Translations under genes and position numbers: made by a program
The notes under the pieces: model-generated
Told to the model about the DNA's origin: nothing
What the model saw: the letters and a program-made list of their open reading frames with translations, nothing else
Databases searched by the model: none
Shown: in pieces, positions 2,552 through 29,617 of the stretch
How the letters are laid out: every line of letters begins with the position of its first letter
Position numbering within the stretch: position 1 is the stretch's first letter
Virus genome (UHGV): UHGV-0179686
DNA length: 29,617 nt
Strand: one strand, 5' to 3'
Origin: a virus

Positions 2552-2860
2552 TTATCGGGTGGATGCGACAAGGATGACGTCTACGTCGATCATGTCGATG
2601 AGATCGTGGAGTTCCTCGGCCTCGTTCTCGGTGAGTGGCTGCCAGTCGTAGTCGCCGTATACGGCGCCGTCGAGGGTGACCGTCCACAGGGGCCGGATGA
2701 GTCGTACGGCTTCTTGTACTTTAGCGTGGTACATGCGGCGCACCATATCCAGATCGATGTCGCCTGAATGGTTTCCGGTGAGGCTGTGGAGGCTGAGCGG
2801 GTCGATTTCTGTCTGCCTGTAGAGGGATGTGAAGGATGGGGTGATGAGTGTGCCATCCAT
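2552..2860 (-). CDS. hypothetical protein (102 aa), tandem paralog of 2201..2512; first gene of the leftward arm next to the non-coding right end
   Basis: ORF-track frame; RBS GAAAGGAG about 9 nt upstream of ATG at 2860; paralogy with the 2201..2512 product by eye. Confidence 0.5.
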   Translation of the reverse strand: MDGTLITPSFTSLYRQTEIDPLSLHSLTGNHSGDIDLDMVRRMYHAKVQEAVRLIRPLWTVTLDGAVYGDYDWQPLTENEAEELHDLIDMIDVDVILVASTR

Positions 2861-2923
2861 GAGGGTGTGCTCCTTTCGGTGGTGTATGGGTTGTTGTGGT
2901 TTCTAGAGTGTGTAGGTTGCAAC

Positions 2924-2962
2924 CGGGAGTCAAGGCTGCGCTCAAACCTAGTGAGCGTTTCA
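2924..2962 (-). promoter_or_regulatory. repeated promoter/operator-like element B (TTGACT plus CGCTCA-N7-TGAGCG inverted repeat) upstream of the first leftward gene
   Basis: gtcaaggctgcgctcaaacctagtgagcgtttcatg; near-identical to element A; located about 65 nt upstream of start codon 2860. Confidence 0.35.
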
Positions 2963-3489
2963 TGCTGGAGTGTTGGGTGTGACGGATGTCACTTAAGCAT
3001 TTACCGCCTCTCCCAGCGTCTCAAATCTTCTGGGGGTAGGATTATATAGGGTTGACCCTGCTGATCGATTCTAGGGGCCTTCTAGGGCGTCTCAGGGGTA
3101 TGTCTGGGTGATAGCAGGTTCGGTAGATGACCCGGCAGATCTACCTTGGCTTTCATCACAAAGGTCGAGGTGCCAGATCTGGGCATGGAATCTACACCCT
3201 CATACTGTGTGAGATGTATCACATCCTCCTGGCGTGGTGTGCCCCCTCAAGGCCACTCTGTCGATCTGGCGTAGAGGGTGTAGCCCAGAAATGCCGTTTA
3301 AAGCTTCAGGGGTACGCCGAGGAGCGCCTTACAGGGTGGAGGCTAGGTATTTATACCCCCAGCACATTCTGATCAATCCTAGACGCCCCCAGGAGACTGA
3401 TACACGATCCACCATCTCGGCATAGACCATCAACCCCTATCCCGCTTAGCTAAGCCTCAACTATGTGGACAGTGTGGGATACTGAGGGG

Positions 3490-3520
3490 GAAGAAGGACA
3501 CGGTAAAAGAAAGAGGGGGG
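3490..3520. repeat. left copy of 30-bp inverted repeat (purine-rich on plus strand: gaagaaggacacggtaaaagaaagagggggg)
   Basis: Reverse complement matches 4902-4931 over 25 contiguous nt (tctttcttttaccgtgtccttcttc) plus flanking C/G run. Confidence 0.7.
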
Positions 3521-3575
3521 AGCATCAGCCTTCAAGCCTTAAGGTCTTAGCGCTTAGCACCGATGGTCTTAGCAG

Positions 3576-3608
3576 TTAGCACCGAGCCCCTCAAGGGCTC
3601 GGCATCAG
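3576..3608. repeat. 33-bp direct-repeat element copy 1 containing perfect GC hairpin CCGAGCCC-CTCAA-GGGCTCGG followed by CATCAG
   Basis: ttagcaccgagcccctcaagggctcggcatcag, identical to 4085-4117. Confidence 0.7.
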
Positions 3609-4039
3609 CCCGAACAGGCACAGCCCTGAAAGGAGTACACGCCATCAGGGAAGGCTTGAGAGTACGAGGAGCCCTAGCGACGAGTACTCGAAAGCCTGAG
3701 GGAAGACCATCAGCACTGATGGGCCTAGCGTGTTCGGAAAGGACACAAGGGTACAGTGTGAGAGCTGTTCGGGAGTGAAACCTGTTCTGACTAGGGGTTT
3801 CAGTCTTAACCACCCTCAAAGGTTACAAGACTCTAAGAAAATTTAAGGAAAAGTTTAGGTTTAATTTTTGGACCTTTACTACCAAAAACACCCGTTTACA
3901 CTCCTCAAACCCGCCTATAGAGCCAAATCCACCAGTTTGACTCATCCCAGGTGGCATATGATAGGCTGGACAGGTAGCCAGCTGGACGCAAGGCCGAAAT
4001 CCGCTGACGCGGCTTTCACCCTTACATCCATCAGTCTAC

Positions 4040-4530
4040 CAAACACTTTAAAGCTTCAAGGCTTAGCGCTAAGGTGCTGATAGCTTAGCACCGAGCCCCT
4101 CAAGGGCTCGGCATCAGTCTTAAAGCTTTAAACACTTTAAGTAACTTTAAAACCTTAACAGCTTAGCACTTAAGGATCTAAGTTACTATAAAAGCTTTAA
4201 AGTCTTAAAGTACATATAAAACCTTAACAGTTAAACGTTAAAAGCTTTAAACCTTAACACCTAAGTTAAGTATAAAACCTTAAAGGCTTAGCACTTAAGG
4301 ATATAAACTTCACATCAGTGTTTAAGACTTTACAGCTTAAAATAACTATTAAGACTTCAAGGCTTATAAGCTTTAAACACTTAAAGTAACTATAAAACTT
4401 TAAAAACCTTAAGTACTTAAAGTTAACCATCAGTCTTAAACTTTAATATTATAACCTATAAGTCTTAAAGCTTATAGGTATAATAATATAATATAAGTAT
4501 TAAAGCTTATAAGTTATAAAAGTTTTAGAA
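4040..4530. repeat. AT-rich degenerate tandem-repeat region (about 120-125 bp period, words cttaa/agctt/ttaaag/tataa); a shorter AT-rich patch also at 3826-3890
   Basis: A 60-nt sample 4141-4200 has 17 G+C by count, against visibly GC-rich flanks. gcttagcacttaaggat recurs at 4161 and 4286; agctttaaacactt at 4124 and 4369; aaaccttaa at 4151/4211/4271. Confidence 0.6.
4085..4117. repeat. 33-bp direct-repeat element copy 2 (same GC hairpin plus CATCAG)
   Basis: Identical to 3576-3608; spacing 509 bp. Confidence 0.7.
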
Positions 4531-4540
4531 GAGTTAAAGG

Positions 4541-4597
4541 GTTAACTTCTTTACTTCTCTTCTCTCTTTGGTTCTTTCTCTCTTCTCTTCTTTTCTT
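4541..4597. repeat. polypyrimidine (C/T) tract about 57 nt on plus strand, followed by purine run ggggagaagaggaa
   Basis: ttaacttctttacttctcttctctctttggttctttctctcttctcttcttttcttc; strand-asymmetric, mirror-like; H-DNA/triplex-forming potential. Confidence 0.5.
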
Positions 4598-4901
4598 CAT
4601 CAGGGGAGAAGAGGAACCTTTAACGTCAACGCTGACAGACTTTTCGCCGTGTGTCTCGTGTGCTTCTGGTCGCAAGCTCCCATCGCACACTCCCCACACT
4701 CTTACACCCGTGTCCCTTTCAGGCTTAGCGTGTTCGGCTGAAGGCGTACGGCTTGTCACGCTCACACCCTTAACACCAGGTAAGACTTAAAGTGTATATT
4801 ATAAGTAGAAGACTTTAAAACCTTAAGGGTGTTCCTGCTGAGCCTGTGTCCTTTAACGCTAGGCGCTAGGCGCTAAGCTGTGAAACGCGAACACCCATAC
4901 A

Positions 4902-4931
4902 CCCCTTCTTTCTTTTACCGTGTCCTTCTTC
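4902..4931. repeat. right copy of 30-bp inverted repeat (ccccttctttcttttaccgtgtccttcttc)
   Basis: Reverse complement of 3490-3520; the two copies bracket the AT-rich repeat module (about 1.38 kb). Confidence 0.7.
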
Positions 4932-5151
4932 TTTTGACACCGCTGGGGGGCGATGTGATCTTTCTCACACCCATGGGGGTAGTGGAGAAAACAACCACCC
5001 CGGCACACACAGAACACCCCCTCAAACGAACAAAACAGCCCCTAGGATCGAACAGTAGGGCACCGGTAGGGTATTCCTACCCCAAGACGATTCTAGGCCG
5101 TTACAGGAGAAATGAGAGGCTCGCAGGGGTTATAGGTGATTGGGGGATGCG

Positions 5152-5454
5152 ATGACACACACCAACCGCACCGCATCCTCCGCCCATCGGCGCTGGCGGG
5201 CAAGGCTCATCACCCAAGCCCAACAACAAGGCCAAACCGAATGCCCACTCTGCGGAGCCCAGATAGCCTGGGGCACACACGATCTACCAACTAGCCCCGA
5301 AGCCGACCACATCACACCCGTCAGCAGGGGAGGACTCAACACCCTCGACAACGGGCAAATCATCTGCAGAACATGCAACAGAAGCAAAGGCAATCGCAGC
5401 GAACCAAACATCAAATTCCAACAACAAACCACAAAAACATTGATTCCATGGTGA
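5152..5454 (+). CDS. HNH endonuclease (about 100 aa), adjacent to cos and terminase genes
   Basis: CPLCGAQ...DHITPVSRGGLNTLDNGQIICRTCNRSKGN is an HNH motif with two Cys pairs. ATG at 5152 with GGGGGA 5 nt upstream; ORF-track TTG at 5140 is an alternative. Confidence 0.75.
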   Translation: MTHTNRTASSAHRRWRARLITQAQQQGQTECPLCGAQIAWGTHDLPTSPEADHITPVSRGGLNTLDNGQIICRTCNRSKGNRSEPNIKFQQQTTKTLIPW

Positions 5455-5505
5455 CAAACCCGCCAACCCCCACCGGGGACACCCCCTGCACAGGCGTGCA
5501 AAACC

Positions 5506-5516
5506 TCGTACGGCTT
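5506..5516. other. candidate cohesive-end (cos) core TCGTACGGCTT between the HNH gene and the small terminase gene
   Basis: Sequence seen at 5506-5516. I recall this 11-nt 3' overhang being reported for C. acnes phages; contains CGTACG palindrome; flanked by TGCAC-aggc-GTGCA palindrome at 5488-5501. Confidence 0.55.
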
Positions 5517-5580
5517 AGTGAAATACCTCCCTTTTGTGGTTTTGTCTGTTTGTCGACTTTTTGTGTTGGTGGTGAGTGTT

Positions 5581-5889
5581 GTGCAGCCTGAGCTTCCTGA
5601 TGGTCGTGAGTGGTGTGGGGAGACGCGTCGTTGGTGGCGTGTGTGGGGTGAGGATAGTCGTGCGCAGTACGTGTCTGATGAGGAGTGGCTGTTTCTCATG
5701 GATGCTGCGGTGATTCATGATTGTGTGTGGCGTGAGGGTCGCGCGGATTTGGTGGCTTCGCTTCGTGCTCATGTGAAGGCGTTTATGGGCATGTTGGATC
5801 GTTATTCGGTTGATGTGGCGTCTGGTGGCCGTGGTGGGGGTTCTGCGGTGGCGATGATTGACCGGTATAGGAAGCGTAAAGGGGCCTAA
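5581..5889 (+). CDS. terminase small subunit (putative; start uncertain, ORF-track frame opens at 5518)
   Basis: Position immediately upstream of and overlapping (TAATG at 5887-5891) the large terminase. GTG at 5581 preceded by GGTGGTGAG. The N-terminal 20 codons of the ORF-track version are G/T-rich and look non-coding. Confidence 0.45.
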   Translation: MQPELPDGREWCGETRRWWRVWGEDSRAQYVSDEEWLFLMDAAVIHDCVWREGRADLVASLRAHVKAFMGMLDRYSVDVASGGRGGGSAVAMIDRYRKRKGA

Positions 5890-18948: not shown

Positions 18949-19767
18949 GTGGGTATTGTGTGTAAAGGGTTTGATGGTGTGTTGACCGAGTATGATTGGG
19001 CTCAAATGTCTGGTCTGATGGGTAATATGCCGTCCGTGAAAGGGCCGGATGATTTTCGTGTCGGCACTACGATTCAGGGTTCCACGGTGTTGTGTGAGGT
19101 CCTGCCGGGGCAGGCTTGGGCTCACGGGGTGATGTGCACGTCGAATGCTGTTGAGACTGTGACAGGTCAGCTTCCGGGCCCGGGTGAGACCCGCTACGAC
19201 TATGTTGTCCTGTCTCGGGATTGGGAGGCGAATACGGCCAAGTTGGAGATTGTTCCTGGGGGGCGTGCGGAGCGTGCCCGTGACGTGTTGCGTGCGGAGC
19301 CTGGCGTGTTCCATCAGCAACTGTTGGCGACTTTGGTGTTGTCGTCTAACGGGTTGCAGCAGCAGTTGGATAGGCGTGCTGTGGCGGCTCGTGTGGCGTT
19401 TGGGGAGTCTGCTGCGTGTGATCCTACCCCTGTGGAGGGTGACCGTGTGATGGTGCCTTCGGGGGCTGTGTGGGCTAACCATGCTAACGAGTGGATGTTG
19501 TTGTCTCCGAGGATTGAGACGGGTTCTAAGCAGATCCAGTTTGGCGGGTCTGCTGTGTATGCTTACACGATTCCGTTTGATCGCCAGTTTAGTAGTCCGC
19601 CTGTTGTGGTGGCGTCTATGGCTACGGCGGCTGGGGGCACGGCACAGATTGATGTGAAAGCCTACAATATTACTGCCAAGGATTTTAGTTTAGCGTTTAT
19701 TACGAATGATGGTTCTAAGCCGAATGGTGTGCCTGCGGTGGCTAACTGGATAGCTGTGGGCGTGTGA
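18949..19767 (+). CDS. minor tail protein / putative receptor-binding component (GTG start chosen by analogy to holin start context; ORF-track TTG 18937 alternative)
   Basis: Shares a 25-nt start context (GTGATTGGGGTTTGTTGTGGGTA) with the holin gene; position in tail tip block. Confidence 0.5.
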   Translation: MGIVCKGFDGVLTEYDWAQMSGLMGNMPSVKGPDDFRVGTTIQGSTVLCEVLPGQAWAHGVMCTSNAVETVTGQLPGPGETRYDYVVLSRDWEANTAKLEIVPGGRAERARDVLRAEPGVFHQQLLATLVLSSNGLQQQLDRRAVAARVAFGESAACDPTPVEGDRVMVPSGAVWANHANEWMLLSPRIETGSKQIQFGGSAVYAYTIPFDRQFSSPPVVVASMATAAGGTAQIDVKAYNITAKDFSLAFITNDGSKPNGVPAVANWIAVGV

Positions 19768-19809
19768 CCGGGCTGTTGTTGTGGCGGATGGTGTGATGTT
19801 GGGGGGGCT

Positions 19810-20076
19810 GTGGTGTCGTGGTTTACTCCTGCACTGGTGGCCTCTATCTGTACCGCGTTGGCCACGGTTTTGGGTTCTGTTCAGGCGGTCACGTCTAAAT
19901 CTCGGAGGCGTTTGCGGCGGCTGTCGGCGCAGGTGGATGCGATGGAAGAGTATGTGTGGGGTGTGCGCCGTGAGGTTCGCCGGTTTAACTCCGAGCTTCC
20001 TGATGATGTGGAGCCTATGCATCTCCCTGATGTGCCCGAGTTTTTGAAAGATACTGTTGATGGTGGAGGTGAGTAG
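19810..20076 (+). CDS. small membrane-anchored protein (88 aa)
   Basis: N-terminal hydrophobic helix WFTPALVASICTALATVLGSV; GGGGGGG RBS before GTG start. Confidence 0.45.
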   Translation: MVSWFTPALVASICTALATVLGSVQAVTSKSRRRLRRLSAQVDAMEEYVWGVRREVRRFNSELPDDVEPMHLPDVPEFLKDTVDGGGE

Positions 20077-20078
20077 GG

Positions 20079-20894
20079 TTGAGGGAGTTGGAGGAGGAGA
20101 AGCGGCAGCGCCGCAATTTTGAGAAGGCTTCACTGGTGTTGTTGTTTTTGTCGCTTGTGTTGTTGGTGGCGATGGCTGGGGGTGCTTTGCGTTTCGGGGC
20201 TGTATCCTCTGAGCGGGATTCGGAGCAGGCGAGGGCCCAGTCGAATGGTACAGCGGCTCGGGGTTTAGCTGCCCGTGTGAAGCAGGTGTGTACCCAGGGT
20301 GGCGTGGAGTCTGCGCGGCTTCATAGGTCTGGTTTGTGTGTGGATGCTGTGCGTGTTGAGCGGAGTGTGCAGGGTGTGCCGGGTCCTGCCGGTGTACGCG
20401 GCCCGCAAGGCCCTGCAGGTGCTGATGGCCGGGATGGTGTTAATGGTTCGGCTGGGCTGGTTGGCCCTGTTGGTCCGCAGGGTTCCCCGGGTTTGAATGG
20501 TGTGAAAGGTCCTGACGGGTTGCCTGGCGCTAACGGTTCGGATGGCCGTGATGGTGTTTCGGGCCGTGCAGGCGTGGACGGTGTGAACGGCGCTGATGGT
20601 AAAGATGGTCGTGATGGTTCGGCTGGTGAGCGCGGCGATGTGGGGCCTTCGGGTCCTGCCGGCCCGCAAGGCGCACAGGGGGAGCGTGGTGAGCGTGGCC
20701 CCGCAGGTGTGAACGGATCCGACGGTAAAGATGGTAAGGATGGCGCTGATGGGCGCTCTGTGGTGTCTGTGTACTGTTCCGGGGGCCGCCTGGTTGTGAA
20801 ATATAGTGACGGTGTGGCTTCTACAATATCGGGCTCGGTGGCCTGCCAGGGTGTGAAACCATCACCTGTGGTTACCGTATCATCCCATAGGTGA
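20079..20894 (+). CDS. collagen-like protein with N-terminal transmembrane helix and about 45 Gly-X-Y triplets (271 aa)
   Basis: GVPGPAGVRGPQGPAGADGRDGVNGSAGLVGPVGPQGSPG... repeats read directly; TTG start with GGTGGAGGTGAG upstream. Confidence 0.8.
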   Translation: MRELEEEKRQRRNFEKASLVLLFLSLVLLVAMAGGALRFGAVSSERDSEQARAQSNGTAARGLAARVKQVCTQGGVESARLHRSGLCVDAVRVERSVQGVPGPAGVRGPQGPAGADGRDGVNGSAGLVGPVGPQGSPGLNGVKGPDGLPGANGSDGRDGVSGRAGVDGVNGADGKDGRDGSAGERGDVGPSGPAGPQGAQGERGERGPAGVNGSDGKDGKDGADGRSVVSVYCSGGRLVVKYSDGVASTISGSVACQGVKPSPVVTVSSHR

Positions 20895-21824: not shown

Positions 21825-22226
21825 GTGGGTAAACAGTTTTGGTTAGGCCTGCTGGAGCGGGCGTTAAAGACTTTTGTTCAAACGTTTGTGGCTGTGTTGG
21901 GGGTGACGGCGGGTGTCACGTATACTGCGGAGTCGTTTCGCGGTTTGCCGTGGGAGTCGGCGTTGATTACGGCTACGGTTGCTGCGGTTTTGTCGGTGGC
22001 TACTTCGTTTGGTAGCCCGTCGTTTGTGGCCGGCAAACCTAAAACCACGCCTGTGGATGCGGGTTTGGTTCCACCGGATGACAGGGGCTTGGTTGAGCCG
22101 CATTCGGTGGATGTGTCGGATCCTGGCATGATTGAGCCTGTAGATGATGCGGATCTTGGTGTGGGCTATGTGCCGAGACATGCTGCCGAGTCGGAGGTTG
22201 GCACGGTAGAGTCTACTGTTGCATAA
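21825..22226 (+). CDS. holin (133 aa, two hydrophobic helices)
   Basis: FVQTFVAVLGVTAGVTY and ALITATVAAVLSVATSF helices; last gene of late operon; GTG start after GGTGGTTTGTT. Confidence 0.7.
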   Translation: MGKQFWLGLLERALKTFVQTFVAVLGVTAGVTYTAESFRGLPWESALITATVAAVLSVATSFGSPSFVAGKPKTTPVDAGLVPPDDRGLVEPHSVDVSDPGMIEPVDDADLGVGYVPRHAAESEVGTVESTVA

Positions 22227-22240
22227 GTGAATATAGATGT

Positions 22241-22305
22241 GTGCCCCAGCGGTGCTGCCACGGTTGTGTGGTGGTTGCCGCTGGGGCACTATTTCTGTTT
22301 TATGC
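22241..22305 (+). terminator. intrinsic terminator-like stem-loop at convergence of late and leftward operons
   Basis: 12-bp stem GTGCCCCAGCGG (22241-22252) / CCGCTGGGGCAC (22278-22289), about 25-nt loop, then ACTATTTCTGTTTTATG T-rich run. Confidence 0.5.
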
Positions 22306-22312
22306 GGTGTGG

Positions 22313-22834
22313 CTATGATTCGTTGCTGTCGATGGTGTCTTCGAGCATCTGGTACAGGTGGAGGCAGGTAGAGATCGTTTCGCTGGCCTGGTCTAGAACG
22401 TTCCGGCCGATAACGTTTTTGTGGTTGTCGCGGTGGCGGATGATAGCCCACATGATCTCGTCGGCTGCCGCCTGTAATAGTTTGGCCTGGTATGCGATTC
22501 CGGCGAGCCAGTCTAGTGCTTCCTGGCTTGCATAGGGGCTCTGGTCCTCGTTGCTGTCACGGGTGTTGCTGTTGTTTGTGGGGTGTTCTGCACTGTCGCA
22601 TAGCCACAGGATTTCGCTGCACTCGTCTAGCGTGTCTTGGTCGATAGCGAGATCGTCGAGGCTGACTTCGTTGACGGTAAGGTTCACGTTGTCGAGGGAG
22701 ATGGGTACACCGTACTGGTTTTCGACACTGTCAACAATGTTTTGTAGTTGTTGCATGTTGGTGGGCTGTTGTTGGACGATACGGTGTATCGCTGTGTTGA
22801 GGGTGGTGTAGGTGATGTTGTGTGTGTTGTTCAT
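22313..22834 (-). CDS. hypothetical protein (173 aa, acidic)
   Basis: ORF-track frame; last gene of leftward arm. Confidence 0.5.
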   Translation of the reverse strand: MNNTHNITYTTLNTAIHRIVQQQPTNMQQLQNIVDSVENQYGVPISLDNVNLTVNEVSLDDLAIDQDTLDECSEILWLCDSAEHPTNNSNTRDSNEDQSPYASQEALDWLAGIAYQAKLLQAAADEIMWAIIRHRDNHKNVIGRNVLDQASETISTCLHLYQMLEDTIDSNES

Positions 22835-22838
22835 GGTT

Positions 22839-23240
22839 TTATCCCATCCCTGTGCTGTCGTCGTTTTCGTCTGGCATGTAGTATGTGCTGTTTGCGTACT
22901 CGGTTAACGTCATCAGTGTTTGGTCTGCCCACTGTTTCACGGTTTGCCGGGTGACACCCAATCGTTGGGCGGCTGTGGCGTAGGTTTGGTCGTATCCGTA
23001 GACTTCCCGGAATGCTGCCAACCTAGCTAAATGTTTTCGCTGTTTGGAGGGTTCACAGGTGAGGGTGTAGTCGTCGATGGCTAGCTGTAGATCGATCATG
23101 GTGGCAATGTTGTTGCCGTGATGCTGGGGGGCGGTTGGTGGGGGTGGCATTCCTGGCTCCACGGAGGGTTTCCATGGGCCGCCGTTCCAGATCCATTGGG
23201 CGGCTTGGATGATGTCGGCGGTGGTGTAGGTTCGGTTCAC
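22839..23240 (-). CDS. sigma-70 region-4-like HTH DNA-binding protein (133 aa)
   Basis: YATAAQRLGVTRQTVKQWADQ resembles the sigma region 4.2 helix-turn-helix. Confidence 0.5.
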   Translation of the reverse strand: MNRTYTTADIIQAAQWIWNGGPWKPSVEPGMPPPPTAPQHHGNNIATMIDLQLAIDDYTLTCEPSKQRKHLARLAAFREVYGYDQTYATAAQRLGVTRQTVKQWADQTLMTLTEYANSTYYMPDENDDSTGMG

Positions 23241-23860: not shown

Positions 23861-24907
23861 TCATCGGGCTATCTGGTAGTTGTTTGGTGTTTTGTTGTTG
23901 ATAGTGTAGCACACGAGTCCGGGGTTTCCGGTGGTGCCAGTCTTGTGCCGGTACCATGTGGATTCGCCTTCCATGGATGGGCATTGGATGAAGGTGCGTT
24001 GTCCTTGTTCGGAGATTTCTAGGTGGTGTCGGTGCCCGGCCATGAGTATGTGGGATGTGGTTCCGTTGTGGAATTCTTGGCCGCGCCACCATTCGTATTG
24101 TTTTCCGGTGCGCCATTGGTGTCCGTGGGCGTGCAGGATTTGTGTGCCTGCCACGTCGACGGTGGTGGTCATTTCGTCTCGGCTGGGGAAGTGGAAGTGT
24201 AGGTTGGGGTATTGGTTGTTGAGCTGGTAGGCTTCGGCGATGGCGCGGCAGCAGTCCACATCGAAGGAGTCGTCGTAGGTGGTGACTCCTTTACCGAAGC
24301 GCACGGCTTCTCCGTGGTTGCCGGGGATGGATGTGATGGTGACGTTGGCGCAGTGGTCGAATTGGTGGATGAGTTGCATCATGGCCATGCGGGTGAGCCT
24401 GATTTGTTCGGTGAGGGGTGTTTGTGTGCGCCAGGCGTTGTTGCCGCCTTGTGACACGTATCCTTCGATCATGTCGCCGAGGAATGCGATGTGGACTCGT
24501 TCGGGTTTGCCGGCTTGCCGCCAGTAGTGTTTTGCGACTAGGAGGGAGTGCAAATAGTCGTCGGCGAAGTGTGATGTTTCTCCGCCGGGGATGCCTTTGC
24601 CGATTTGGAAGTCTCCTGCCCCGATGACGAAGGCTGCAGTGCTGTAGTCGGTGTGGGTGTCCTGTTCGGGTTTGGGGGGTGTCCATTCGGCTAGCTTGTC
24701 GACGAGTTCGTCTACAGGGTAGGGGTTTGTTGCGGGTTGGTGGTCGATGATTTTTTGTACGGATCGGCCTGTTTCTCCGTTGGGTAAGGTCCATTCAGAG
24801 ATGCGTGTGCGGCGTACGGTGCCGTTGGCTAGATTGTCGTCGATGGTGTCGATGGCGTTGTCGTGGTTGGCTAGCTGGGTGAGGAGCCGGTCTATGTTGT
24901 CTATCAC
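23861..24907 (-). CDS. calcineurin-like metallophosphoesterase (SbcD/Mre11-like), about 348 aa; start set to GTG 24907 (GTGA overlap with upstream stop)
   Basis: Motifs FLGDMIEG (GDxxE), IPGNHGE (GNHE), HAHGH, AGHRHH. The ORF-track upstream extension overlaps gene 24904..25098. Confidence 0.7.
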   Translation of the reverse strand: MIDNIDRLLTQLANHDNAIDTIDDNLANGTVRRTRISEWTLPNGETGRSVQKIIDHQPATNPYPVDELVDKLAEWTPPKPEQDTHTDYSTAAFVIGAGDFQIGKGIPGGETSHFADDYLHSLLVAKHYWRQAGKPERVHIAFLGDMIEGYVSQGGNNAWRTQTPLTEQIRLTRMAMMQLIHQFDHCANVTITSIPGNHGEAVRFGKGVTTYDDSFDVDCCRAIAEAYQLNNQYPNLHFHFPSRDEMTTTVDVAGTQILHAHGHQWRTGKQYEWWRGQEFHNGTTSHILMAGHRHHLEISEQGQRTFIQCPSMEGESTWYRHKTGTTGNPGLVCYTINNKTPNNYQIAR

Positions 24908-25098
24908 TGGGTATCCTCCTCGTGTGGGGTGGTGTTGGCTTGTTTGCGGCGGTAGTCTTTGATGACGGTGGCGGAGATGGGGTATCCTGCCTGGGTGAGC
25001 TGTTTTGCTAGCCATGAGGCGGGGATAGACCTGTCGGCGAGGACGTCTGCAGCTTTGTTGCCGTAGCGTTGGATGAGGGTTTCAGTTTTGGTTGCCAT
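24904..25098 (-). CDS. small putative HTH protein (64 aa)
   Basis: SWLAKQLTQAGYPISATVIKDYRRKQ helix-turn-helix-like. Confidence 0.4.
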   Translation of the reverse strand: MATKTETLIQRYGNKAADVLADRSIPASWLAKQLTQAGYPISATVIKDYRRKQANTTPHEEDTQ

Positions 25099-25648
25099 GA
25101 TGTCCTATCGGTTGTGTGGTGGGTTGCCATCCTGTGCGGCAGTCGCCGTCGTGTCCTGGTTTGCGTGTGCACCACGATACGGTTCCGTCTGTGTGGTTGA
25201 GTGTTTTTCCGCACATGACGTTTTGTAGATGCTCCGGCAGTGCGGCGTCACCCTGGTTGCTGGTTTGTGTGTCGAAGAGTGTTTTCTGGTTGGTGAAATG
25301 CTCTGACACGGTGCCGTTGTGGACTGGTAGTATCCATGTTTTCCATTGTTGTTGTAGCCGGGTGTTCCAGTGGAATTGTTTGGCCGCGTTCGTGGCTTGT
25401 TTTAAGGTTTTGTAGTAGCCTACAATAATCCGTTGATGGTCACTATCGGGCTTGTGTGGCCCTTTCCAATATTGGGCAGCTACAGCGTACCTGTTGTTGT
25501 CTGTGAAGCGCCCCCAGCAGTATTCCACCATGTGTGATAGTACCTTGTCGGGCATGTCTCGTACTTGGTTTTCGTCGAGCCACGCGTCGACAATGATGTT
25601 GCGTATGGCTTGCTTGTCTTTGGTGGTGGGTTTGAACGAGATGCTCAC
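25082..25648 (-). CDS. hypothetical Cys/His-rich protein (about 188 aa; start GTG 25648 in GTGA overlap; ORF-track extension to 25936 overlaps upstream gene)
   Basis: C-terminal CGKTLNHTDGTVSWCTRKPGHDGDC looks like a zinc-binding motif. Confidence 0.45.
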   Translation of the reverse strand: MSISFKPTTKDKQAIRNIIVDAWLDENQVRDMPDKVLSHMVEYCWGRFTDNNRYAVAAQYWKGPHKPDSDHQRIIVGYYKTLKQATNAAKQFHWNTRLQQQWKTWILPVHNGTVSEHFTNQKTLFDTQTSNQGDAALPEHLQNVMCGKTLNHTDGTVSWCTRKPGHDGDCRTGWQPTTQPIGHHGNQN

Positions 25649-26208
25649 AGTACGGGCCTGTCGTCTTGCATGAACTGGTTGAAGGTGCTGTTCCCGGCGT
25701 GTTGGGCTTGTGTGATTTGCTGGTCGGTCCAGTCTGGGTGTTGCTGTTTCAGATAGTGCCAGTGACACGCATTGTAGGTCTCGTCTTGTAGCCGTGTGAG
25801 ATGGTTTTCGGTGATGATTTGTTTCCACATGGCCCATGACACGTCGAGCCGGTTGAGGATTTCGAGGGCTGAGATGTTGAACTGGTCGAGGAAGAGTATT
25901 TCGTGGGTGTAGTAGTTTTTCTCGTAGGCGTCCCATCCGCTTCGGTGCCTGTTGGGCTGGTTTTTGGGGTAGGCTTCCCGGCAGATTTTGTGTAACCGTT
26001 TGGCCATGTCGTCGGGTAGTTTAATGTCGGGGTTGGCGCGGATCATGGATCGCATCCCATCATAGGTGGTGCCCCAGGTGCGCATGATGTAGGTGGGGTC
26101 TTCACCATCAGCCCATTTTTCTGCACAGATGGCGAGGCGGATACGCCTCCTGGCTGTTTGGCTGGTGTTGCGGCGGTGGGGGATGGGGCACGTGTCGAGG
26201 GGATCCAT
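25645..26208 (-). CDS. hypothetical protein (187 aa)
   Basis: ORF-track frame, native composition. Confidence 0.5.
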   Translation of the reverse strand: MDPLDTCPIPHRRNTSQTARRRIRLAICAEKWADGEDPTYIMRTWGTTYDGMRSMIRANPDIKLPDDMAKRLHKICREAYPKNQPNRHRSGWDAYEKNYYTHEILFLDQFNISALEILNRLDVSWAMWKQIITENHLTRLQDETYNACHWHYLKQQHPDWTDQQITQAQHAGNSTFNQFMQDDRPVL

Positions 26209-26252: not shown

Positions 26253-26924
26253 TTACTGTAGCACAGTGTTGAGGGCTTGTGTCAACCCTGTTTTGCCGGC
26301 CTGCAGGTAGGTGTCTGTGACATCCCCGACAGTGAGGGGCACATGGGTGGCTTGGGGGAGTGCTGCCTGGAGGGTTTGGGCCATCTGGTCGCCTGCGGGG
26401 TCTGGGTCTGACCAGATGTAGATGTGGTCGTAGCCTTCAAAAAATTTGGTCCAAAAGTTTTGCCACGAGGTGGCGCCGGGTAGGGCTACGGCCGACCATC
26501 CGCATTGTTCGAGGATCATGGAGTCGAATTCGCCTTCGCAAATGTGCATTTCGGCTGCCGGGTTGGCCATGGCGGCCATGTTGTAGATGGAGCCTGTGTC
26601 CCCTGCCGGGGTTAAGTATTTGGGGTGGTTGTGGGTTTTGCAGTCGTGCGGGAGTGAGCAGCGGAAACGCATTTTTCGTATTTCGGCTGGGCCGTCCCAT
26701 GTGGGGTACATGTAGGGGATGGTGATGCACTGGTTGTAGTTTTCGTGGCCTGGGATGGGGTCATTGTCGATGTATCCAAGGTGGTGGTTGCGGGCTGTTT
26801 CTTCGCTGATGCCTCTTGCTGAGAGCAGGTCGAGAATGTTTTCGAGGTGGGTTTCGTAGCGGGCTGATGCTTTCTGGATTCGGCGGCGTTCCGCAATGTT
26901 GTATGGGCGTATGCTGTCGTACAT
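26253..26924 (-). CDS. DNA primase, TOPRIM-domain part (223 aa)
   Basis: HICEGEFDSMILEQ...IYIWSDPDPAGDQ matches the TOPRIM E / DxD signature. Confidence 0.7.
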   Translation of the reverse strand: MYDSIRPYNIAERRRIQKASARYETHLENILDLLSARGISEETARNHHLGYIDNDPIPGHENYNQCITIPYMYPTWDGPAEIRKMRFRCSLPHDCKTHNHPKYLTPAGDTGSIYNMAAMANPAAEMHICEGEFDSMILEQCGWSAVALPGATSWQNFWTKFFEGYDHIYIWSDPDPAGDQMAQTLQAALPQATHVPLTVGDVTDTYLQAGKTGLTQALNTVLQ

Positions 26925-27162
26925 TCGGGTTTTCTTTCTCTAGTCGTTGTTGTAGTTTGGCGAGTCCGCCTCCGATGCCGCATGTGTGGCAGTACCAGAC
27001 GCCCTTGTCGAGGTTGATGCTCATGGAGGGCTGGTGGTCGTCGTGGAGCGGGCAGAGTATGTGTTGCTCGTTCCTGGATGGGTTGTACCGTATCTGGTAG
27101 GTGTCGAGGAGGTGGCGGGTGTCAGAGGTGTGGGAGGAGCTCGTTGAGGGTTGATACCACAT
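26761..27162 (-). CDS. DNA primase zinc-binding (CHC2) domain ORF; native sequence ends around 26926, remainder of frame overlaps the TOPRIM gene and looks non-native
   Basis: CPLHDDHQPSMSINLDKGVWYCHTCGIGG is a CHC2 zinc finger. After ...QQRLEKENP the frame reads P/R/H-rich sequence and overlaps 26253..26924, which sits in another frame. Confidence 0.6.
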   Translation of the reverse strand: MWYQPSTSSSHTSDTRHLLDTYQIRYNPSRNEQHILCPLHDDHQPSMSINLDKGVWYCHTCGIGGGLAKLQQRLEKENPNVRQHTPIQHCGTPPNPESISPLRNPPRKHSRPALSKRHQRRNSPQPPPWIHRQ

Positions 27163-27478
27163 AGGCTTCGCTCCAGGGTTTGTTGCGCTGTTTCATGATG
27201 ACTAGGCCGATGGTGGATTGGTTTTTGCGGTTTCGGTGGGTTTCGTAGTTGCGCGCCTCAAGGGTGGCTTCTTTCACGAATTGGGCTAGGTGTGGTTGCC
27301 CGGCTTTCGCCTCGATAATGTAGGTTTTGTTGCCGGTTTTGAGGATGAGGTCGCCTTCGTCTTCCCTTCCGTTGAGATGGAGGCGCTCTATATCATAGCC
27401 GGTGTCGCGTAGCTGGTGGAGGAGTCGTGTTTCCCATTCGGCTCCTGCCCTGCGGTTGCGTGCCTGTTGTGTCGACAT
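27122..27478 (-). CDS. Hjc-like Holliday-junction resolvase / PD-(D/E)XK nuclease (118 aa)
   Basis: GAEWETRLLHQLRDTGYD...DLILKTGNKTYIIEAK fits the G.E.E...L...G....D....IExK pattern. Confidence 0.45.
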   Translation of the reverse strand: MSTQQARNRRAGAEWETRLLHQLRDTGYDIERLHLNGREDEGDLILKTGNKTYIIEAKAGQPHLAQFVKEATLEARNYETHRNRKNQSTIGLVIMKQRNKPWSEAYVVSTLNELLPHL

Positions 27479-28341
27479 GATAGTCCTTTGTGTGTTGTGG
27501 TCATGTTCCAGGGCTGTTTTTCGGCGAGGGGCCCGAAGAATGTGTATTCGGGGTAGGCTCGTAGTCTTTCGTATCGGGTGCCGTCTGGGCTGGATTTGCC
27601 TGTGCGCTGTTTCAACACTGCGATGCGTGCCTCGGCGGGGATGGTGAGCCCGTTGCCATTATCCTCGCCACCATACAATGATACTCCGAGAATGAGTTGT
27701 GGTTTTTCGGAGAGTCCGTTTTTGATTTCCCGGCGTGCTGGCGGGTGTTCGATGTCGGAGCCGGTTTTGTCGGTTGCGTGGTGTGTGACAATAATGGTGG
27801 AGCCAGTATCCCTACCCAATGCTGTGATCCATTGCATGGCTTCTTGCTGGGCCTGATAGTCACTCTCGCAGTCTTGGATGTCCATGAGGTTGTCGATAAC
27901 AATGAGTGGTGGGAAGGTGTTCCACATTTCCATGTAGGCTTGCAGTTCCATGGTGATGTCGGTCCAGGTGATGGGTGACTGGAATGAGAAGGTGATGTGT
28001 TGGCCGTGGTGGATGCTGTCTCGATAGTATTCTGGCCCGTAGTTGTCGATGTTGTGTTGTATCTGTGTGGTGGTGTGTTGGGTGTTGAGTGAGATGATTC
28101 GTGTGGAGGCCTCCCAGGGTGTCATGTCCCCTGATATGTAGAGGGCGGGCTGGTTGAGCATGGCGGTGATGAACATGGCTAGCCCGGATTTTTGGCTGCC
28201 GGAGCGCCCCGCGATCATGACTAGGTCCCCTTTGTGGATGTGCATGTCCAGGTTGCGGTAGAGGGGTTCTAGCTGGGGTATGCGGGGCAGCTCGGCGGCT
28301 GTTTGGGAGGCCCTCTCGAAGGATCGTTGTAGAGAGAGCAT
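27388..28341 (-). CDS. DnaB-like helicase C-terminal domain / RecA-fold ATPase (317 aa)
   Basis: Walker A-like AGRSGSQKSGLAM, Walker B-like PLIVIDNLMD. Confidence 0.6.
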   Translation of the reverse strand: MLSLQRSFERASQTAAELPRIPQLEPLYRNLDMHIHKGDLVMIAGRSGSQKSGLAMFITAMLNQPALYISGDMTPWEASTRIISLNTQHTTTQIQHNIDNYGPEYYRDSIHHGQHITFSFQSPITWTDITMELQAYMEMWNTFPPLIVIDNLMDIQDCESDYQAQQEAMQWITALGRDTGSTIIVTHHATDKTGSDIEHPPARREIKNGLSEKPQLILGVSLYGGEDNGNGLTIPAEARIAVLKQRTGKSSPDGTRYERLRAYPEYTFFGPLAEKQPWNMTTTHKGLSCRHNRHATAGQEPNGKHDSSTSYATPAMI

Positions 28342-28382: not shown

Positions 28383-28853
28383 TCAGATGGAGTCGATGTC
28401 GATATCAGCATCAGTTGAGGCTGTGGTGTCGTCTAGCTGGCCGTTATCGCGTTTGTCTACGTATCCGGCAACCTTATCGTAGATGGCGTCATCAAGGGGT
28501 TTGAGCACGACCGCGTTGAAGCCGTTTTTGGTGCGTACGGTGGCGAGTTTGAAGGCCTGTTCTTCGCCGAGATAGGCTTCGAGGTCGCGGATCATGGAGT
28601 GTGGGCGGTCGTTGTTGCCGCGTGCTTTTTCGATAATAGCGTTGGGGATGGTTTCTGGGGTGCCGTTGTTGAGATCGTCTAGGGTGTGGAAGATGGTGAC
28701 ATCAGCGTAAATACGATCGGCGGTCTGTCCACCGTAGCCTTCAGTGTTGTGTTCCACGTCGTGCACTTTGAAGGCGATGGCGGTGGCGTCCTGGTTTCGG
28801 GATGGGTTGAAGAAGGTGCTGTTATTGCTGTTGCGGTAGTTGGCGAGTCCCAT
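28383..28853 (-). CDS. hypothetical protein (156 aa, acidic C-terminus)
   Basis: ORF-track frame; RBS AAAGGAAAC before ATG 28853. Confidence 0.5.
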   Translation of the reverse strand: MGLANYRNSNNSTFFNPSRNQDATAIAFKVHDVEHNTEGYGGQTADRIYADVTIFHTLDDLNNGTPETIPNAIIEKARGNNDRPHSMIRDLEAYLGEEQAFKLATVRTKNGFNAVVLKPLDDAIYDKVAGYVDKRDNGQLDDTTASTDADIDIDSI

Positions 28854-28890: not shown

Positions 28891-29301
28891 TTATCGGGTG
28901 AGGCTGTTTCGTTTGCTGCGGAACGCCTCGGATACGTCACTGTTACTGGTGATGATCTTTTTGTACTGTTTCAGAAGGTCGGCTAGCTGTGCCTTGCTGG
29001 TTGCGTCGCGGATTTTGTCGATGACGATGCTGTTTTCGTTTGATGCGATGTTGTCCACGTAGTCTTTGGTGGCCTGATTGTATCGGTCTTGGAGGATGAT
29101 TGATGCGCTCGCTACGAGTGTTGCTAGATCCCAGTCTTTGGACACGTCACCGTTTTTGAGTCCGCCTAGCAGGTCGATGATGGCCTGTTTTGTCTGCTCT
29201 GCCGTGTCTCCGCGGATGACCGCCCACGGTGCAGCATAGTCTCCACCATATTTGAGTGTGATCGTGAGTCGATCATTGTCGATCTTGTCTTTATCGGTCA
29301 T
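28891..29301 (-). CDS. hypothetical protein (136 aa)
   Basis: ORF-track frame; ATGA overlap with the exonuclease gene end at 29298-29301. Confidence 0.5.
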   Translation of the reverse strand: MTDKDKIDNDRLTITLKYGGDYAAPWAVIRGDTAEQTKQAIIDLLGGLKNGDVSKDWDLATLVASASIILQDRYNQATKDYVDNIASNENSIVIDKIRDATSKAQLADLLKQYKKIITSNSDVSEAFRSKRNSLTR

Positions 29302-29617
29302 TTGGTGTCCTTTTCTTTATTGTCTGTTTCTGGTGGCTGTACGGTGGATTCTACCGGGTATCTGTACGAGTTTTTGCCGTTGACGGCCCAGCAGGCGTCT
29401 CGTACGGGGCATCCTTTACAGAGTGTTGTAACGTGTGGGACGAAGATGCCTTCGCTGATTCCTTTCATTGCTTGACTGTACATGGATGATACATGCCGGT
29501 AGGTGTTGTTGTCAAGGTCGTAGAGTTCGGTGGATGTGCCTTGTGTCGGGGACTTGTCGTCGTTGCGGCTGGTGGCTGGCGTCCAAAACATGCCTTTTGT
29601 CACATCGTTGCCGTGTT
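29298..29617 (-). CDS. Cas4/RecB-like exonuclease, C-terminal part (continues in-frame from 1..628 if the molecule is circular)
   Basis: CKGCPVRDACWAVNG supplies a C-x2-C-x5-C cluster matching the Fe-S cysteines of Cas4-type nucleases. Codons 29615-29613...29603-29601 are in the same frame as the gene leaving at position 1, with no intervening stop. Confidence 0.55.
   Translation of the reverse strand, partial: HGNDVTKGMFWTPATSRNDDKSPTQGTSTELYDLDNNTYRHVSSMYSQAMKGISEGIFVPHVTTLCKGCPVRDACWAVNGKNSYRYPVESTVQPPETDNKEKDTK

Follow-up and report, generated by a model that had tools for sequence, protein, structure and literature searches.

The stretch of DNA analysed here, the 29,617-nucleotide virus genome UHGV-0179686 (hereafter the window), carries nine copies of the hexamer CATCAG on its plus strand between positions 3523 and 4603, in a region that lies between a leftward operon of replication and early genes and rightward genes that run toward the cos site (Table 1). 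By its sequence the window is a complete Cutibacterium acnes phage genome (Pahexavirus), written as a rotated circle: its DNA from 3000 to 5200 matches 231 Propionibacterium/Cutibacterium acnes phage records at 80-95% identity. Because the window begins and finishes within a RecB-like exonuclease gene (the equivalent of P100D gp36, which contains both position 1 and position 29617 and is absent from the window’s list of open reading frames, ORFs), the record is a circular permutation. The cos junction is 5516/5517, as the two ends of the phage MrAK record align to 5367-5516 and 5517-5666.

Mapping of the MrAK and P100D annotations places the final leftward gene at 2552-2860 (minus strand). On the other side, a small ORF (4880-5155) and an HNH endonuclease gene (5140-5454; Pfam HNH) both point rightward, toward cos. 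No MrAK gene falls within 2861-4879. The P100D record annotates gp44 and gp45 inside the region, some other records also place small genes there, and frames of at least 45 codons stay open over parts of it in many phages. We considered such hidden genes, including frames that would read CATCAG as nCT GAT Gnn on the minus strand, and rejected them: in an alignment of 58 distinct relatives, variation was equal across codon positions, with no periodicity in any of the six candidate ORFs. As there is no third-position excess of variation, the region is truly non-coding. This agrees with the original prediction, made from the letters of the window, that the array is confined to a non-coding right end; it also adjoins an AT-rich core near the genome end. 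Rfam returned no credible match in the region (three hits, E ~0.5-1, far below the gathering scores).

This locus and its proposed role as an origin are already published. Marinelli et al. 2012 (mBio) described a stretch of non-coding DNA, over 1 kb long and close to the right end, that has a GC content below 25% and “well-conserved low-complexity runs”, and considered that the origin probably lies there, with a switch in GC skew as evidence (PMC3448167). The skew profile that we computed agrees with theirs: GC content drops to ~25% in the region, and the cumulative GC skew reaches its maximum at 3871, inside both the array and its central conserved block. The plus strand has G>C genome-wide except from 3871 to the right end, and the plus-strand HNH gene within this segment (3871-5516) has strongly reversed GC and AT skews. 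The orientation of CATCAG is unchanged across the skew switch.

The CATCAG array

The array is real and lies far beyond chance. Dinucleotide shuffles of 3500-4620 predict 0.13 copies of CATCAG (maximum 3 in 2000 shuffles) against the nine observed, and the expectation for the entire non-coding stretch is 0.33. In a scan of all hexamers CATCAG came first (z ~26), the runners-up being overlaps of it or pieces of longer repeats; the enrichment is therefore independent of how the word was chosen. The original prediction had listed these nine same-strand copies, and all are present, although two of its coordinates, 4314 and 4597, were each one base off (the other seven were correct). The inverted copy it reported at 3716 is also there, as part of CCATCAGCACTGATGG at 3707-3722, and is the only minus-strand CATCAG within the array. 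Among the extended versions it described, CATCAGTCTTAAA does occur at 4112 and 4428 and ggCATCAGcc at 3601, but position 3521 reads agCATCAGcc.

Successive copies start 80, 40, 65, 321, 83, 201, 115 and 170 bp apart. Long flanks are common to only two of them, through a 70-nt duplication (3539-3608 / 4048-4117), so at least seven occurrences are independent, with a common flank no longer than 1-3 nt. Over 15 site loci the flanks show only weak preferences (YCTTAAA follows 4/9 copies), and CATCAG alone is invariant.

The local strand ratio is 9:1. Since the A>T and C>G skew of the region would by itself give ~1.7:1 by our estimate (P ~0.07 for the bias), the orientation bias is by itself only suggestive. 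Genome-wide counting bore out the predicted enrichment, giving a far lower CATCAG density elsewhere: the remaining genome has 5 plus and 25 minus copies, and the densest other cluster holds 5 minus-strand copies in ~1.1 kb (19671-20751), three of them translated as Gly-Ala-Asp-Gly within a collagen-like tail gene. In left-arm genes the sense strand contains CTGATG 18 times against 14.5 expected from codon-order shuffles, mostly in the frame nCT GAT Gnn, while the right arm has 4 copies of CATCAG per strand. The minus-strand excess elsewhere is codon usage and not a signal, and the same left-arm and right-arm counts rule out a Chi-like genome-wide polar motif that flips at cos.

Table 1 Features of the region and candidate partner proteins (window coordinates), with the number of 58 relatives that keep CATCAG at each site.
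Feature	Position	Strand	CATCAG kept	Remarks
Non-coding region between leftward replication/early operon and rightward small-ORF/HNH/terminase genes	2861-4879			From MrAK and P100D annotations; putative origin region
Promoter-like module, three copies	3024-3110; ~3332-3400; 5006-5092	-; +; +		From repeat analysis
Left arm of 30-nt inverted repeat	3490-3519			97% complementary to 4902-4931
GC-rich part	3523-3722			Four CATCAG, one TTAGCAC-hairpin-CATCAG module, palindrome
CATCAG copy 1	3523-3528	+	42/58	TATCAG in 13; 4 nt past the purine-rich left arm of the 30-nt inverted repeat
TTAGCAC, hairpin (CCGAGCCC / CTCAA / GGGCTCGG, 3582-3602), CATCAG copy 2 (3603-3608)	3576-3608	+	58/58	Upstream minimum free energy -16.7 kcal/mol
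CATCAG copy 3	3643-3648	+	54/58
Palindrome CCATCAG-CA-CTGATGG: plus copy 4 (3708-3713) and sole minus copy (3716-3721)	3707-3722		Copy 4, 8/58; minus copy, 51/58	Copy 4: CCTCAG in most; word one base off in 10 more
Central conserved block with promoter-like TTGACT (3937-3942) and TATGAT (3957-3962)	3833-3998	+		~97% column conservation, 58 phages
Hairpin GAAATCCGC / TGAC / GCGGCTTTC	3996-4017	+		Ends 11 nt upstream of copy 5
CATCAG copy 5	4029-4034	+	58/58
Second TTAGCAC-hairpin (4091-4111)-CATCAG module, copy 6 (4112-4117)	4085-4117	+	57/58	Upstream minimum free energy -20.2 kcal/mol
AT-rich core, candidate DNA-unwinding element	4118-4546			GC 25-35%
CATCAG copy 7	4313-4318	+	54/58	Within AT-rich core
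CATCAG copy 8 (CATCAGTCTTAAA)	4428-4433	+	56/58	Within AT-rich core
Pyrimidine-rich tract	4547-4597	+		Nearly invariant; runs straight into copy 9
CATCAG copy 9, then GGGGAGAAGAGGAA	4598-4603	+	55/58
Right arm of 30-nt inverted repeat	4902-4931
Right genome end (TCGTACGGCTT)	5506-5516	+		By comparison with the deposited ends of MrAK; left end begins at 5517
Protein with sigma-70 region-4-like helix-turn-helix (HTH)	22839-23240
Metallophosphatase-type nuclease	23861-25015
Small protein, annotated HTH in P100D (gp27)	24904-25098
Toprim part of primase	26253-26924	-
CHC2 zinc-ribbon part of split DnaG-type primase	26761-27162	-
RusA-like resolvase	27122-27478
AAA_25 / DnaB_C helicase (DnaB/RepA-like)	27388-28341

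Conservation and variation among related phages

Two pattern scans of IMG/VR and GenBank records yielded first 58 and then 62 distinct versions of the region, whose identity to the window is 83-92%. The array is conserved and replenished in them: at seven of the nine sites, 54 or more of the 58 relatives keep the word, and over the 62 distinct regions the number of plus copies per phage is 4-12 (median 10) against 0-3 minus copies (median 2). Other phages have additional plus copies at 13 further loci (such as ~3428 in 26 phages and ~4236 in 16), several of which sit in segments that this window does not have, and only 6 further loci have minus copies. Taken together, the nine hexamers show greater conservation than nine hexamers drawn at random from 3500-4620 (P ~0.02-0.04, among C. 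acnes phages that are very alike one another). The clearest contrast is at 4029, where the left flank diverges, the motif is invariant and the following nine bases are at least 98% conserved.

A natural deletion shows how much of the region a phage can lose. Lood and Collin reported that phage PAS50 is without almost 500 bp of it (PMC3094311), and in our alignment PAS50 lacks 3564-4083 and 4166-4340. Each end of the 520-bp deletion lies in one copy of the 70-nt direct repeat, which is what recombination between the two copies should produce. Lost with these segments are sites 3643, 3708, 4029 and 4313, one hairpin-module copy and the entire central block. PAS50 keeps four plus copies: a fused hairpin module, 4428, 4598 and an upstream copy at ~3428, where the window reads CATCAA. 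Because PAS50 was isolated and propagated as a phage without them, five sites and the central block are dispensable.

Searching with the protein encoded by ORF 25645-26208 led to a more distant relative and the single outgroup, the Cutibacterium avidum phage CA1NRNZ (PV441878.1; 47% identity). Proteins common to the two phages are 38-70% identical, and the layout is the same, with a leftward replication operon, 1.5 kb of non-coding DNA (30834-32369) and rightward methyltransferase and HNH genes; the DNA methyltransferase gene (32370-33323) stands between the non-coding region and HNH, where C. acnes phages have the small ORF. The non-coding region of CA1NRNZ has no plus-strand CATCAG. The word CAACA(A/G) occurs there 9 times on the plus strand and once on the minus strand, against 1.5 expected from shuffles, and 4/9 of these words directly follow hairpins of unrelated sequence (P=5e-4; weaker with duplication discounted). 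A scan of IMG/VR with the CA1NRNZ helicase returned only C. acnes-type phages (69-71% identity) and a scan of GTDB genomes for further relatives returned nothing; neither scan turned up another intermediate lineage.

Three non-coding blocks are shared between the lineages. The central block (69% identical to CA1NRNZ 31721-31872) is on the same strand in both; the AT-rich/pyrimidine-tract block has the reverse orientation and has changed sides relative to the central block, window 4481-4611 corresponding to CA1NRNZ 31242-31092; and the third is the promoter-like module. The inverted block in CA1NRNZ is flanked by a 25-nt inverted repeat (31126-31150 / 31277-31301, 92% complementary), and the equivalent of copy 9 reads C-TAAG. 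In the window the array keeps its orientation across the central block, and in each of the two phages the words flank this block to left and right, on its strand. Word orientation therefore tracks the central block and not the AT-rich block, which is inverted in CA1NRNZ.

The central block is the most conserved non-coding block, and its -10-like TATGAT is followed by AGGCTGGAC. CA1NRNZ has a second copy of the TATGAT element (32305-32322) ~50 nt upstream of its methyltransferase gene, and the sequence suggests that the element is a rightward promoter. The promoter-like module, present in three copies in the window and one in CA1NRNZ (30855-30950), has the shared core CCCTAGRATCGA...CAGGG...TATWCCTACCCC...GATTCTAGG. 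Of the window copies, one is directed at the leftward operon, another at the HNH/late genes, and the remaining one runs into the CATCAG array.

Hairpins and repeats around the motif

Copies 3603 and 4112 each close a ~33-nt module that consists of TTAGCAC, an 8-bp GC-rich hairpin and CATCAG, with the stem abutting the motif. Every one of the 62 relatives has one to three such modules. In the alignment of the stem 96% of cells are paired; one pair passes through the series C-G, U-G, U-A, and a second stem type (TGAGCC/GGCTCA) with U-G intermediates on the plus strand makes this one covarying pair, while the remaining pairs scarcely vary and are thus uninformative either way. The loop (3590-3594, 4099-4103) reads CTCAA or its reverse complement TTGAG in different phages and copies, with stem and flanks fixed, which suggests hairpin-mediated inversion. 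The remaining seven copies have no hairpin association, and two of them follow fully unstructured purine or pyrimidine runs. A general rule of a hairpin followed by the motif was therefore rejected: it describes 2/9 sites here (P=0.21) and 4/9 in CA1NRNZ, a subset only.

The hairpin at 3996-4017 occurs in two allelic forms whose stems differ in sequence yet are both paired, GAAATCCGC/GCGGCTTTC and GGAAAGTGC/GCACTT(T/C)CC. The second pairs better on the minus strand, where its mismatch is a G-T wobble. The spacer between hairpin and motif differs between the alleles, and the CCATCAGTCTA that comes after the spacer is identical in all variants listed. The surrounding segment, 3966-4125, folds much better than its shuffles (z=-4.0). 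Inverted pairs of the type CCATCAG-NN-CTGATGG occur at two loci, 3707-3722 and, in relatives, near 4623-4638. Both are imperfect and polymorphic (the left half of the palindrome is CCCTCAG in most relatives), and neither is at a known promoter.

The AT-rich core contains quasi-periodic CTTTAA, CTTAAA and CTTAAG words (CTT(T)AA) with a period of ~8.6 bp, and also includes four degenerate ~60-nt units and many short palindromes, for example CCTATAAG...CTTATAGG. The whole array and the AT-rich core are enclosed by the 30-nt inverted repeat, the purine-rich arm of which (3490-3519) is complementary to its partner (4902-4931) at 29/30 positions, 1382 bp apart; both arms pair less well in MrAK. Outside it there are further inverted matches, looser and nested (3207-3240/4937-4970, 3056-3110/5006-5060 and 3024-3044/5072-5092), and in all the region holds 15 direct and 48 inverted repeat families. 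AGGACAC is found on the plus strand at 3495 and 3740, left of the AT-rich core, and on the minus strand at 4846 and 4920, right of it, so that the copies face each other. TAGCGTGTTCGG occurs twice, at 3726-3737 and 4726-4737, exactly 1000 bp apart. Neither AGGACAC nor TAGCGTGTTCGG is enriched genome-wide as judged by shuffles.

Possible roles of the CATCAG copies

As far as the literature we searched shows, no one has described the CATCAG array, its orientation, the hairpin module, how the array behaves in PAS50 or its replacement by another word in CA1NRNZ. Marinelli et al. proposed an origin at the same locus, and the available excerpts of their paper make no mention of CATCAG, orientation bias, hairpin-CATCAG module or palindromic pair (PMC3448167). 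Nor does CATCAG appear in the excerpts of PMC3652107 and PMC3094311, and our literature search returned no paper that ties CATCAG to an origin of replication or to repeats.

We tentatively favour a model, which we rate as plausible but somewhat short of probable, in which a lineage-specific protein for replication or regulation recognises the CATCAG copies at the origin as short oriented boxes. Once the cos ends have joined, an early phage protein would bind the boxes that flank and interrupt the AT-rich core, the resulting multi-site complex would assist opening of this core, and the DnaB/RepA-like helicase and split DnaG-type primase would then be recruited. Candidate binders are the two HTH proteins in Table 1, which the original prediction had also named, and two helicase-adjacent proteins without an assigned family (28383-28853 and 28891-29301). 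The inverted pair at 3707-3722 may be a dimer (operator-type) site; iteron plasmids likewise combine direct repeats with an inverted operator. That a protein binds the array, which protein does so, and that the output is initiation of replication are all points that we infer from sequence.

We favour recognition boxes because they account for why the word is enriched and conserved, why inverted pairs occur and why the sister lineage has another word. The array is in non-coding, AT-rich DNA at the proposed origin, and the skew maximum falls within it. Copy number is held, with a strong excess of plus over minus copies, and new copies are mostly plus. A different word within the same architecture, as in CA1NRNZ, is what sites evolving in step with their protein would show. 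As C. acnes phages persist as circular episomes (PMC11480721, PMC3094311), an origin of plasmid type is plausible.

Several observations weigh against these boxes. The core is only 6-7 bp with weak flank preferences, and its spacing is irregular and unphased across 1.08 kb. PAS50, an isolated phage, is viable with only 4 plus copies. Flanks are often as conserved as the motif in relatives with 83-92% identity to the window, so the motif does not stand out as a sharp phylogenetic footprint. The parallel in CA1NRNZ is suggestive and not proven, because CAACA(A/G) was chosen after looking, the region is A/C-rich and two of the copies lie within a 91-nt duplication. The strict one-strand orientation has no natural explanation in this model: it is not required for binding to double-stranded DNA, and suits recognition of a single strand or of RNA at least equally well. 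Finally, searches of the right-arm proteins against Pfam, PHROGs, NCBIfam and PDB sequences found primase, helicase, RusA, exonucleases and HTH domains but no Rep, O, DnaA or DnaD-like initiator. A novel initiator may be among the right-arm proteins without a family match. For one of them, gp35 (28891-29301), a single-sequence structure model was unusable (mean predicted local distance difference test score 40), and its best 120 homologues are all at least 86% identical.

The original prediction likened the copies to iterons and named initiator, partition-protein and terminase recognition arrays as typical settings. For the initiator setting the outcome is mixed: the AT-rich neighbour, the conservation and the inverted pair agree with it, and the extended consensus, phasing and Rep-like initiator are missing. 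Iteron origins (lambda ori; pSC101, P1, F, R6K) and the CATCAG array both have direct repeats adjoining an AT-rich unwinding element, which here has CATCAG on both sides and inside; the array also has an inverted pair, imperfect and polymorphic, that may correspond to the inverted half-sites of iteron origins, and in both the specificity varies between related replicons. Classical iterons, however, are 17-22 bp repeats with an extended consensus and regular, phased spacing, alongside their own initiator gene, whereas the array has a 6-7 bp core with no common extension, spacings of 40-321 bp that leave no common remainder for ~10.5 bp, and no recognisable initiator in the phage; and five of its sites are lost in the viable natural variant PAS50. 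Because several defining iteron features fail, we class the array as a variant of origin-associated repeats rather than as an iteron member, and infer that it is iteron-like in function while outside the classical family.

Other known systems share parts of the pattern. The ori and crr of satellite phage P4 contain type I repeats, an 8-bp word in two separated clusters that is bound by the alpha primase-helicase, with no separate classical initiator. The array resembles P4 in its short repeated word and separated clusters, recognition by a replication protein being only putative here. It differs in that P4 alpha is one fused primase-helicase-DNA-binding protein, whereas primase and helicase are separate in this phage and no DNA-binding domain was identified. 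The complementary-strand origin of phage G4 and ssiA/ssiB of RSF1010 (read by the RepB' primase, with RepA helicase) pair a strand-specific hairpin with an adjacent short start sequence, an arrangement that the two hairpin modules of the array resemble, and in this phage, as in RSF1010, genes for a primase and a RepA/DnaB-type helicase are present. G4 and RSF1010 use only one or two signals, each ~40 nt long and on opposite strands in RSF1010, in contrast to nine same-strand copies here, most of them without a hairpin, and the primase is DnaG-type here but RepB'-type in RSF1010.

The remaining settings fared worse. The predicted terminase recognition (cosB/pac-type) was rejected on distance: 913 bp separate cos from the end of the nearest copy at 4603, and the small ORF and HNH gene intervene; CA1NRNZ has an intervening methyltransferase gene too. 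Partition-protein recognition was rejected as well, since scans with Pfam, PHROGs and NCBIfam found no ParA, ParM or TubZ-type gene, and partitioning functions are reported to be absent from these phages (PMC3448167). CATCAG also differs from AGCAGY, the target of the only active C. acnes restriction system reported (PMC8989293), and a host restriction-modification target was rejected for that reason. We likewise rejected a -35-like element for the sigma-region-4-like protein, as by eye no -10-like hexamer stands at a fixed distance from the copies.

Could the copies instead be read as a single strand? In a different model, which we consider unlikely but worth serious attention, they are strand-specific priming or helicase-loading signals that a DnaG-type primase would use once the AT-rich core opens. 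The template would be recognised through the separate zinc-ribbon protein, hairpins would present the motif in the hairpin copies, and primers would all be laid in one direction, making replication strongly directional. Primase sites are a better match than iterons for a motif that keeps strictly to one strand over 1 kb, has a short core, is irregularly spaced and can lose copies, and the phage encodes the CHC2 zinc-ribbon, Toprim and AAA_25/DnaB_C helicase proteins that would be needed. The conserved modules, in which two copies abut the 3' arm of a GC-rich hairpin, point the same way, as do the sole covarying stem pair, which goes through U-G on the plus strand, and the CAACAA copies that abut unrelated hairpins in CA1NRNZ. 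So does the zinc-ribbon protein, which has diverged further between the lineages than any other replication protein (38% identity; helicase, 70%), but this comparison comes from two lineages only. Near-whole-genome skew of a single sign is compatible with mostly one-directional synthesis (PMC3448167). Weighing on the other side, the hairpin association of the window sites is not significant, two sites follow unstructured runs, the module loop occurs in both orientations, and in one allele the 3996-4017 hairpin folds better on the minus strand, so that the evidence for the strand is mixed. Known primase recognition sites are, moreover, 3-5 nt long, and we know of no array of nine primase sites at an origin. 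The zinc-ribbon and Toprim ORFs overlap by ~160 nt in different frames, an overlap kept in CA1NRNZ (22077-22730, 22579-22926), and could represent a programmed frameshift or two separate subunits. In its full form this model would make the region an undescribed origin element, a one-strand priming/loading array served by a split primase through its zinc-ribbon and by the helicase, firing in one direction, with a word that co-evolves with the zinc-ribbon (CATCAG in C. acnes, CAACA(A/G) in C. avidum phages); we find this complete version rather improbable.

Transcription offers two further explanations. The plus strand may be a long rightward leader of the HNH-terminase-structural (late) operon, with CAUCAG, often placed right behind a hairpin, a repeated site of RNA binding, processing, termination or antitermination, which appears improbable. 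Plus-oriented promoter-like elements do stand upstream of both halves of the array (the ~3332-3400 module and TATGAT 3957-3962), the second TATGAT copy in CA1NRNZ stands upstream of the methyltransferase gene, and the late operon should require a promoter upstream of cos; the strong fold of 3966-4125, the compensatory changes in hairpins and the fact that orientation follows the central block would all suit an RNA. However, these promoters are consensus-level guesses (the TTGACT-TATGAT spacer is only 14 nt), no Rfam match comes at or near its gathering score, the hairpins lack U-tracts and a terminator scan of the region was negative, and the palindromic pairs are left unaccounted for. Our literature search found no transcript map of these phages. 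Alternatively, a small HTH protein would bind the asymmetric boxes as operators and silence or time rightward transcription, with a possible role in a carrier or pseudolysogenic state. This we hold to be a poor prospect, even though the array lies between divergent early and late transcription units, the 3707-3722 palindrome is operator-like and HTH candidates are encoded. There is precedent in actinobacteriophages for orientation-dependent, monomer-bound asymmetric sites, namely the stoperators of mycobacteriophage L5, bound by the gp71 repressor, whose orientation is tied to a directional process. L5 sites are, however, 13 bp long, number ~30 per genome, and are spread over intergenic sites of both arms in alignment with transcription, whereas CATCAG is enriched in one region only and elsewhere reflects codon usage; by eye, too, the spacing of the copies to -10-like elements is inconsistent. 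Pseudolysogeny is documented (PMC11480721) and in keeping with such a role, but these phages are not known to have any repressor or immunity function (PMC3448167).

It is also conceivable, though very unlikely in our view, that the copies have no function and are remnants of duplication, recombination and hairpin-mediated rearrangement, kept through the similarity of the phages. The region is rich in repeats, two copies lie in the 70-nt duplication, deletions between repeats and loop flips occur, flanks are nearly as conserved as the motif, and PAS50 survives the loss of five sites. Yet at least seven copies lack common flanks beyond 1-3 nt, and nine copies against 0.13 expected would be hard to get by drift. 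The sites are more conserved than the regional background, copy number and orientation are maintained, with new copies arising in variable segments, and an analogous oriented array is found in a lineage only 40-70% identical in its proteins.

C. acnes phages are under development as acne treatments and as tools for work on a skin bacterium that is hard to manipulate genetically. Base composition has so far been the only ground for placing their origin, and their episomal carrier state is unexplained. If the boxes are ordinary binding sites, the array is a useful annotation and no surprise. What is new is a defined, conserved and mutable cis-element, together with a natural deletion variant (PAS50) and a sister lineage with another word (CA1NRNZ). 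This makes the origin question testable in terms of the binder, the strand, and a role in replication direction or episome maintenance, and a mapped minimal origin would aid the construction of phage-derived Cutibacterium vectors.

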